Shown in pieces: positions 40,323 to 43,300 of a stretch of 64,000 bases of DNA. This stretch comes from Escherichia coli. GTDB taxonomy: Bacteria > Pseudomonadota > Gammaproteobacteria > Enterobacterales > Enterobacteriaceae. The DNA lies in the NCBI RefSeq assembly GCF_030013205.1, contig NZ_CP122648.1; one strand, given 5' to 3'. The position numbers are program-made. How positions within the stretch are numbered: the first letter of the stretch is position 1; each line of letters starts with the position of its first letter.

Positions 40323-43300
40323 ACCCGCATACTATGCGGTCTTCAGTAATCACACGAATTACCGTGAAAGCCAGCACTGGTCTTTCCGACGGTAGTAACA
40401 CCCCTGTGAACACCAAAATAACCGTCTTCCAGACCGACGAGAATACTAACGACATTTTTTCAGATATCAAAAATATATTTTGTTTTTAGTTTTTAATATA
40501 TGTATGCATCTGTATCAGAAATATACAATTTATATCATTACTAAATTAAAAACATTTCTCTGACGTCTGATTAAAACGTTCCTGTTCCAGTTCCGCGCCA
40601 ATCACACATGGTCATTGCGTTTTACCAGTCCATCGCCACTATCAGGCTGACCAGGGGACGCCCCACCCGAACTGCTGAGAATGCCAGGCACACAAAGAAT
40701 AATGCCCGCCAAAGCGTTCCTGCATACAATGACTGCAAAATTCAGTTATTCTTGAGCGGAGCCAGAACTCATCTCACTGAATGCAGCCATCCTGTAACCT
40801 TCCGGGGTGACCCCAAAATAACGCCTGAATACACTGATAAAATAAGATGTATTATTATAGCCACACTGCACAGCGATTCTGTTGATGGCACAGCTATATT
40901 GATGCAACAGCATTGCTGCCATTCTCATTCTCTCCGTAAGCAACAACTCACTGAAACATGTGCCTTCTTCTTTCAGTCTTTTTTTAACAAACTTTCACTC
41001 ATACATAACCGTGATGACACATCTCGCAGAGTCCAGTTTGCTGCAATGTCTGTATGAAACAACGCACCAAGCCTGCCGCTGATAGTACTGATACACGCGG
41101 TCATAAACGACGAAAACATTTTATCTGATGAAAAAAACGCCAGACACGAAAAGGAAAGCATTTCCGCTAAATTGTCCGTATGAATCTTTTCCTCATAAAG
41201 ATAATCAATCAGGATGCCCATCAATTCTGGCCTGGGAAAACTCATGCAAAGATATCGTGGCATTTTCCGGACTAAAACAACATCCTGTTTTACCCCACTA
41301 CGCAACAGGTAACGGCTAATTGTCGATTCACTGAGACTTATACGCCGAAAACATTCAGAAAAGGGCAATAACGGTCCAGCCCCTCCCCTGACAAGAAGTG
41401 CACTACCACTTTCCAGAGAGAGTACTTTTCCTTCGAAGAGCACAACAAACGGGGAATGAACAAAAATAACAGAACAGGCCTCATTCATATCAATATCCCT
41501 GACATTACTGGTCGCAAGATAAGTATATATCACTTTACAAAAATGCAAGCCGTGAGCCCCGAATTCACGACCACCAGCGTGTTTACTGTACTGCACCAGG
41601 TTTACAGGTACAAAAAACCGCTCGACGGCGGGTTTAAGCTGTGTGGCGAAGTAACCACTCTTAACAGATTAAGATAAAATTTGCGGACCGCGGTAATTTT
41701 TTTTGCTAAATTAAAGCCATATAAAAAATAAGATCCATAAGAAATTATTAGTATACTAAGGTTTAACATGGCTACTATTGCGCAATCAAAGAAACAAAAA
41801 AAACTTAAAATTGGTTTTTACACCAGCAGTTCTGGGACTATCCGCAGCCATTCAGTTGCTAAGCAAGCAATTGAAAATCTGTATAATACTTGCGTAACCG
41901 TTACGAATAATCATTTTGATACCATCTATAGAAATAAAAAGTTAAAAATAGCTTTTATAAATAAAGATACAAAAGCTAAATATTTCTTCGGCTACATGTC
42001 ATGCTCACGAGAAGAGTATCTCCTTCCTTATATTGGTGATGAACACTGGAATGAGCACAACATACCACTAGATGATAAAAAATACATAGTCGAAAGAACC
42101 TATTTTTTATATTATTACGATAGTGATATTTTAATATTAACTCAAAATCATCTTGGGCCGAAAGAATCGGATTTAGCTTATCTGCTTTACAGCCAGAGTG
42201 GTAATCCTGGAAATAACTTTTCATTCCAAGCCATCTGGAAAAAAGAGAGCGTCAAAGAGCTACTTGAAACAGGAAGTACTTTGAGAAGTTGTGATATTGT
42301 CCTGGCTGCTCCCAGGAACTTTGATGCAACAAATTACCAGCTAAATAGTTCATTTTCTAAGGAACTGGTAAATATGATGGTAGGGCTGGGTGGAACACGT
42401 CTCAAGTTAAATCTAAGGGGACGTGCATCAGGGAGAGTAAAAGTCAAAGGTTATTTATCAGATCTCGTTAAGGATGGTATTAAAGAACTCCTTGAAAAAA
42501 TGCCGGGAATTGTAAAAAAAGCGGCAGTAACACAGCCCAAAAATACCGTTGAACAAAGTCTTCTTGATCAGGTACTCATTTCAGAAAAAAACATATATAC
42601 CGTTAATGGTTATGGCACTGATAGTGATGTTCTGCAAGCCATGATTTCTGCTAAAATTGATAACAATGAATACCTTAAGCAATACGATATCAGCAAAAAG
42701 AAGGTATAGGATATGTTATTGAAATACTTAAGAAACCTGATTGTAAGTGTTTTTTGCACCTTGTTCCTACTGAGGTATATCCCTCAGATGGGGCATGCTG
42801 ACATACTTACAGCCTCCGGGGTTATTTCAACTGTATCCGGTATTTTATTTGGTTTTATTTTAGCCACAATATCAATTTTTAGTGCTGCTAGCGAAAACTC
42901 AAATGGAATAATAAAAGCATTAAAAAACAACAACATACTTCAAGTTATTATTGTAAATCTATTAACCGCAGGTGCATCTTTAATTACGGCATGCGTTATT
43001 GCTTTGATAGCAATGTTTGCCAATGAAAAGACATTGTTACATGGAGAAAAAATAGAATTTATTTTAATTATCGAATCTTTATCTCTTCTTATCATTTCAG
43101 TAATAACTTTTGCCTTTACATGGAGAAAAGTAAACTGGATACTCCCCCACATTTAAAAAGGGCAGAAATGCCCTTTTTTCTACTCCATTTCAAGTTTAAC
43201 ATCCAGCATTGAAAGGCATCCATCAATAAACCCTTCAGCCATCTGTATCTCTATACGTATCAATTTCTCATCTTTTTTGCGAGCTCTTGCAAGCTTTCTT

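Follow-up and report, generated by a model that had tools for sequence, protein, structure and literature searches.

Bacteriophage lambda's Rex system is the oldest known abortive-infection system, and the mechanisms of RexA sensing and RexB gating are unresolved. RexA is described as having two domains and a flexible hinge; in its fold a globular domain is split by an inserted dimerisation domain. In the validated gp30/gp31 defence of mycobacteriophage Sbash, gp31 is the RexB-like effector, and mutations in its central cytoplasmic loop region abolish defence (PMC6426596). RexABpp (PP_5643/PP_5644) is a validated pair of Pseudomonas putida prophage P1 (Sci Rep 2026, PMC12894663). The P. putida paper counts five Rex-like systems, and the membrane protein is the effector in four of them (PMC12894663). 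Here, a two-gene pair, referred to as A and B, is described from a 64,000-nucleotide stretch of Escherichia coli DNA (assembly GCF_030013205.1, contig NZ_CP122648.1), the whole of which is called the window. The pair is probably a distant Rex-type two-component abortive-infection or exclusion moron of a cdtI-like lambdoid prophage, and this reading takes in the mechanism proposed below. Apart from that mechanism, it is based on the predicted fold, the four-helix membrane partner, the constant A-then-B adjacency, purifying selection, prophage carriage and an AT-rich insertion that appears to be bounded by a terminator. A divergent Rex-like exclusion system had been put forward in the original prediction, which was made from the sequence alone. 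The fold, profile-profile alignments, synteny and moron anatomy now lend it support.

The A and B genes (Table 1) are separated by 3 nucleotides (42710-42712) between the A stop codon and the B ATG. A has no hydrophobic segment (the highest 19-residue Kyte-Doolittle mean is 0.53) and is 10.9% lysine, with 44 Lys and Arg against 33 Asp and Glu residues. A model of A, generated with AlphaFold2 (AF2) from a 51-sequence alignment, has a predicted local distance difference test score (pLDDT) of 87.2 and a predicted template-modelling score of 0.80. Structure prediction had been suggested as a check, and when the model was searched with Foldseek against 350,542 chains, the first match was RexA (8twq; E 3.4e-7, probability 1.00), the best Protein Data Bank (PDB) match. 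The global template-modelling score (TM-score) is low (0.36-0.39), which is compatible with the description of RexA as two domains around a flexible hinge. As modelled, A has a RexA/RdgC-type two-domain fold. RdgC (PDB 2owl) is third in the same search (E 4.5e-4). Membership of A in the RdgC family was considered and rejected: the best structural match is RexA, the gene is paired, and A does not match the Pfam RdgC family. RdgC is a much weaker match than RexA and is a stand-alone chromosomal gene that lacks a membrane partner.

B has four hydrophobic segments by hydropathy, at about residues 1-20, 31-61, 74-109 and 112-137. Its AF2 model (pLDDT 86.7) has four long helices (2-22, 28-59, 75-102 and 114-146) and a short loop helix at 66-72, in keeping with the predicted four-transmembrane (TM) topology. 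The basic residues of B are concentrated at both termini and in the TM2-TM3 loop, which is consistent with an N-in/C-in orientation. In a Foldseek search of BFVD, the second-ranked match to the B model is a 165-residue Sbash protein (probability 1.00, TM-score 0.55, E 0.018). This protein was identified as gp31 because gp31 is the sole annotated protein of that length in Sbash. The match between the B model and gp31 is support for the Rex-type reading, not proof of it.

Profile-profile comparison points in the same direction for both genes. Family alignments of RexA and RexB were built from the lambda proteins and their homologues and compared by hhalign with those of A and B, the B-family profile being enriched with the syntenic partners of distant A homologues. 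The A family aligns with the RexA family with a score of 31.1 (P 1.3e-3) over 251 colinear columns spanning the full length of the two proteins, between the N-terminal K-x-GFY strand and the C-terminal helix. The B family aligns with the RexB family with a score of 29.2 (P 3.5e-4) over 62 columns that are in register across TM1, TM2 and the loop. Reversed profiles score 14.6-16.2, the cross pairs (A versus RexB and B versus RexA) score 10.8-11.8, and 30 column-shuffled targets give means of 14.2 and 12.5 with maxima of 24.6 (A) and 18.2 (B). These scores are a weak but above-background indication that each gene is independently homologous to the matching lambda gene. Two short lambda motifs given in the original prediction proved correct. 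The residues of KIGFYTSSSG in A and KNGFYATYRS in lambda RexA are paired in the A-RexA alignment, and for RexB, LFLLRYIPQMGHAD is aligned with LLFRHYIPGVSFSAH by hhalign and BLASTP.

Relatives of A were collected by phmmer from 1.84 billion cluster representatives (E<=1e-3). The search returned 56, mostly at 17-30% identity, and the named relatives come from Yersinia, Serratia, Aeromonas and Pseudoalteromonas. A hydrophobic open reading frame (ORF) of 113-162 amino acids lies directly 3' of A in 38 of 38 assessable loci (35 of 35 in one survey together with loci L038, L040 and L042; the L039 contig stops at the end of A). With many near-identical loci among them, they amount to about 12 distinct lineages, down to 17-20% identity. 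The downstream partners align with B and have in common a TM2 motif, S/T-x-x-A/S-G-x-L-x-G-F, and an L-x-x-L-K loop; TM2 and the cytoplasmic loop are the best conserved portion of B. All relatives that can be placed are in prophage or mobile-element settings. In an Aeromonas locus (L004), an HTH-S24 cI repressor gene, A and B follow one another on the same strand, with a divergent Cro-like gene and an integrase gene after them. This arrangement is the lambda cI-rexA-rexB layout. Elsewhere the pair adjoins an integrase and a CI-type repressor gene (L002) or capsid and portal genes (L040). The order found in the window, lysis (-), A (+), B (+) and Q (-), also occurs in two other lineages, one 87% identical (L026) and the other of Yersinia type at 48% identity (L037). 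The cassette is found on unrelated phage backbones: in the lambdoid Q slot, in a P2-like immunity region and beside an integrase. In E. coli it is rare, being present in 24 of 5,426 complete genomes (about 0.4%), always on the chromosome and at least 99.6% identical, and the carriers are mostly porcine enterotoxigenic E. coli. Decay is seen in some prophage copies of the 87% lineage, where A is interrupted by a frameshift or early stop codon in L033 (6001-6940) and B is truncated to 113 amino acids in L034 (about 6947-7288).

This distribution bears on a role outside defence, in which A, as a DNA-binding protein of RexA/RdgC type, would act for the prophage itself, for example in the lysis-lysogeny switch or in recombination, with B as a membrane tether or accessory. 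RexA itself acts at the CI-Cro switch independently of RexB and binds DNA non-specifically. That RdgC is among the structural matches of A and that the Aeromonas pair is co-oriented with cI would also fit. Such a role is unlikely, since a purely DNA-directed function leaves the membrane partner in every assessable locus unexplained. Moreover, the pair behaves as a low-GC moron on unrelated backbones, and the cassette is dispensable, given that phage 1720a-02 does without it.

The comparison of A with its 87%-identical homologue (L026) gives 135 synonymous-only and 39 replacement codons, and the differences at the three codon positions are 31, 21 and 159, so that 159 of 211 fall at the third. 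For B, the figures are 54 synonymous-only and 44 replacement codons, with 39, 18 and 81 differences by position. This pattern indicates that both genes are under purifying selection and that A and B are real genes rather than chance ORFs. A Shine-Dalgarno-like AAGG lies 6 nucleotides 5' of the A ATG. The putative ribosome-binding site of B is inside the 3' end of A, which together with the 3-nucleotide gap suggests that translation of the two genes is coupled. The soluble Lys-rich protein, the short gap and the four-TM protein of the original prediction were therefore all borne out. Long antisense ORFs run across B, as at 42940-43152 (-) in the window, and in the metagenomic locus L038 (1425-1883) the gene caller took a 152-amino-acid antisense ORF over the B homologue. 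Automated surveys may for this reason undercount A-B pairing.

In the same comparison, A is the better conserved partner, with a nonsynonymous divergence (dN) of 0.08 against 0.21 for B. This would suit a reversal of roles like that in mycobacteriophage Butters, whose gp30/gp31 is also a Rex-like prophage pair of a soluble and a four-TM protein. There, the effector is the soluble partner, which the membrane protein sequesters (PMC12894663). Applied here, A would be a toxic antiviral effector held by B until infection, and the sequence is silent on which partner is the effector. Role reversal is quite unlikely, being reported for one of the five published systems and set against a membrane effector in the other four (PMC12894663). 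The conservation of B peaks at TM2 and the loop, where mutations of Sbash gp31 abolish defence (PMC6426596), and no enzymatic or toxin domain was recognised in A by profile searches of Pfam and PDB sequences.

The pair is carried on a discrete insertion. Window positions 41600-43200 are 99.9% identical to orf54/orf53 of phage cdtI, both annotated 'hypothetical', and similarity to this phage extends from 41563 to 45156. By blastn, phage 1720a-02 (KF030445) matches 43184-45000 at 92% and 41545-41704 at 81%. Because these two flanking blocks are separated by only 21 base pairs (bp) in 1720a-02, the cassette is a 1,479-bp insertion with the Q stop codon on one side and a conserved post-Q element on the other. 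Its guanine-plus-cytosine (GC) content is 34.0%, compared with 51.5% for the Q side and 49.5% over the whole window, and A and B are opposite in strand to the prophage Q and lysis genes. The cassette ends in a hairpin at 43155-43178 that is U-rich on either strand and folds as RNA at -13.4 kcal/mol on the + strand (z -4.3) and -13.0 kcal/mol on the - strand (z -3.0). It looks like a bidirectional intrinsic terminator. The original prediction had placed the pair between the Q-like gene and the lysis cassette, beside an AraC-family pseudogene, in AT-rich DNA and away from cI, and this description of the site holds.

The post-Q element contains a terminator-like hairpin with a U-run at its end (41629-41617). 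Part of it (41612-41667), at up to 96% identity, recurs in dozens of lambdoid phages upstream of their late or lysis genes, and in Lambda_4C10 (L049, LR595861) it is upstream of the holin gene. From its position, the element is probably a late-leader region. Depending on where the late promoter lies, Q-modified transcription may either cross A-B antisense or begin beyond the cassette. In Lambda_4C10, an opposite-strand porin gene of OmpD/NmpC type (2452-3534) fills the gap between Q and the element. The presence of this porin gene makes the Q-to-element gap a recurrent moron slot for varied cargo oriented opposite to the late genes.

A mechanism can be proposed from lambda RexAB, Sbash gp30/31, CarolAnn gp44/43 and P. 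putida RexABpp. A and B would be made together in the lysogen. A, probably as a DNA-binding dimer, would detect a product or a DNA-protein intermediate of the infecting phage and then activate B through the conserved cytoplasmic TM2-TM3 loop. B would oligomerise to form a channel or pore. The resulting collapse of membrane potential and ATP would lead to growth arrest, and replication of the superinfecting phage would fail.

Compared with lambda RexA/RexB (PF15969/PF15968; 8twq), the pair is alike in having a soluble protein of ~280-310 amino acids followed by a four-TM protein of ~145, in being prophage-borne, and in the N-terminal K-x-GFY of A and the (R/H)YIP motif of RexB TM1 in B. The cI-A-B order of the Aeromonas relative is a further likeness. 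A is 34 amino acids longer than RexA. The pair is a convergent moron with its own terminator between Q and the late region, whereas the lambda genes are in the pRM-transcribed immunity region. Sbash gp30/gp31 and CarolAnn gp44/gp43 have the same two-gene Rex-like architecture, and the Sbash pair is also away from the repressor. The B model is structurally similar to gp31, and the central cytoplasmic loop is conserved in B and functionally implicated in gp31. These systems differ in having no sequence similarity to the pair, in the 372-amino-acid length of gp30, and in their actinobacterial hosts (Sbash is a mycobacteriophage and CarolAnn a Gordonia phage); they are triggered by specific phage proteins. 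A DUF4747 motif common to gp30 and lambda RexA was reported in 2019 (PMC6426596). Sbash gp30 (L047, 6934-8049) matches no current Pfam-A family at E<=10, so DUF4747 is unusable as a bridge to A. RexABpp is just downstream of a Cro/CI-family repressor gene, in contrast to the position of the pair beside Q. The N and C termini of PP_5643/PP_5644, as deduced from primers, were found in none of the 56 A representatives, and exact patterns derived from the primers had no match in viral, genome or metagenome contigs.

A residues 34-260 match Pfam DUF6731 (PF20505; E 2.1e-10), as do 44 of 51 A homologues, and the E. coli copies of the two genes appear in RefSeq as 'DUF6731 family protein' and 'hypothetical protein'. 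A and B are assigned to PHROGs 7651 and 8552, both families of unassigned function. B has no match in Pfam, and a scan of all B-family members gave just weak, scattered matches. The NCBIfam scan of A and B gave nothing meaningful, and only noise came back when PDB sequences were searched with phmmer and a profile hmmsearch, for instance eIF2-alpha at E 0.04. The lambda RexA family does not match DUF6731, even weakly, and lambda RexA now matches PF15969 alone. A literature search found no paper that mentions DUF6731, and one on lambdoid defence hotspots found nothing relevant.

Several results weigh against a Rex-type assignment. Neither A nor B matched the PADLOC RexA/RexB models (PDLC02339/PDLC02340) at E<=1 or Pfam PF15969/PF15968 at E<=10, and they fall outside the RexA and RexB PHROGs (12654 and 14878). 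The PADLOC, Pfam and PHROG Rex models find the lambda proteins at 1e-61 to 1e-163 (RexA: PADLOC 9e-110, Pfam 1.2e-97, PHROG 12654 6e-163; RexB: PADLOC 9e-61). As these models recover the lambda proteins and miss A and B, the pair is outside the RexA/RexB families as defined by sequence. The hhalign probabilities are low (18% for A and 37% for B), at about 11-14% identity, and with a probability of just 18% the A alignment is supportive only in combination with the fold match. By hhalign, the A and B profiles showed no similarity to the single Sbash gp30 and gp31 sequences. Lambda RexB does not appear among the 50 best BFVD matches to the B model, the best E-values there are just about 1e-2, and four-helix membrane bundles are a generic fold. 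The pair also lacks linkage to the immunity repressor, the cI-like gene being 3.3 kilobases off, and a consensus promoter scan upstream of A found no convincing sigma-70 promoter, with a total for the region below the shuffled expectation. Expression in the lysogen is an assumption, since the pair is not beside cI and has no recognisable sigma-70 promoter. Not every accepted Rex-like system is linked to the repressor, Sbash being one that is not.

A further alternative is an unrelated membrane system, such as a superinfection-exclusion protein preventing DNA entry or an addiction pair of toxin-antitoxin type, with its Rex likeness convergent or coincidental. Pairwise BLASTP against lambda RexA and RexB is at noise level (E 0.25 and 0.012), small four-helix membrane proteins are common, and no defence-database profile was matched. 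This explanation is very unlikely. The original prediction had been staked on profile or structural similarity to RexA/RexB, and it is supported. No direct family-profile match was found in Pfam, PADLOC or PHROG, DUF6731 being the family recovered for A, and both the RexA fold and the profile-profile alignment are present. The pair would stand as Sbash gp30/31 and RexABpp do: Rex-type by remote homology while failing the RexA/RexB profile definition.

The neighbourhood contains other accessory genes. The AraC-family (YdeO/GadX-like) gene is split into a 207-amino-acid N-terminal ORF (model positions 2-169) and a 66-amino-acid C-terminal helix-turn-helix ORF (about 183-228), and is for this reason probably a frameshifted pseudogene. 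It sits where phage cdtI carries orf55 and a DNA methylase gene. A tRNA-Gly gene (anticodon TCC; 40254-40328, -) lies in the prophage between it and the holin genes. Just past the endolysin gene, a 197-amino-acid ORF (38093-38686, +; 32-40% GC) has no PHROG match and scores 207.9 bits against the lipopolysaccharide (LPS) core heptose(II)-phosphate phosphatase model NF011945 (PmrG/Ais-like; curated cut-off 142). It looks like a second, LPS-modifying moron that ends the lysis cassette. Upstream of Q, a 331-amino-acid gene (43560-44555, -) matches PHROG 96 'HNH endonuclease' (E 2e-175); its 1720a-02 homologue is annotated as a second 'antitermination protein Q', and the public annotations conflict.

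Table 1. Coordinates of the A-B cassette and neighbouring features in the window
Feature	Position	Strand	Description
Gene A	41768..42709	+	313 amino acids, soluble, Lys-rich; Pfam DUF6731; predicted RexA-like two-domain fold; PHROG 7651
Gene B	42713..43156	+	147 amino acids; four predicted TM helices; conserved TM2-TM3 loop with a short helix; PHROG 8552
Putative B ribosome-binding site	42700..42704	+	GAAGG read from the sequence, within the A 3' end, 8 nucleotides 5' of the B ATG
Cassette	41705..43183		1,479 bp, 34% GC; in phage cdtI, missing from the otherwise colinear phage 1720a-02
Bidirectional-terminator-like hairpin	43155..43178		10 bp, GGGCA/TGCCC core and A-U pairs; between the convergent B and Q stops
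Conserved post-Q element	41545..41704	-	Left boundary, outside the cassette; ~160 bp; directly 3' of Q in 1720a-02
Q-like antiterminator	43180..43557	-	PHROG 79; convergent with B
Holins	39138..39795	-	Lysis genes
Endolysin	38758..39141	-	Lysis gene
cI-like gene	46488..47180		
Split AraC-family (YdeO/GadX-like) gene	40746..40946 and 40973..41596	-	Two ORFs

There is an even chance that a large branch of the Rex superfamily has gone unrecognised and consists of DUF6731 proteins with their four-TM partners (PHROGs 7651 and 8552 plus distant relatives), with its own trigger specificity and travelling as a mobile promoter-to-terminator moron. Such a branch would comprise at least 56 clusters at 50% identity from Enterobacteriaceae, Aeromonas, Pseudoalteromonas and many metagenomic lineages, with slots at the Q/late junction, in the P2-type immunity region and beside the integrase. 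By the present result, a Pfam domain, DUF6731, and two function-unassigned PHROGs are tied to the Rex class. The finding would not surprise a specialist, yet it annotates a family of unassigned function. Profile-based defence finders overlook such pairs, as the unmatched PADLOC models illustrate. It would give a likely anti-phage annotation to ~0.4% of complete E. coli genomes and to phage cdtI orf53/54, with relevance to phage therapy and prophage ecology. Because the cassette is compact and is found in E. coli, it is directly testable with coliphage panels. If the reading is true, it would provide a second, E. coli-native example of how RexA-like sensors gate RexB-like channels, and Rex-type immunity would be far wider than the five described systems.

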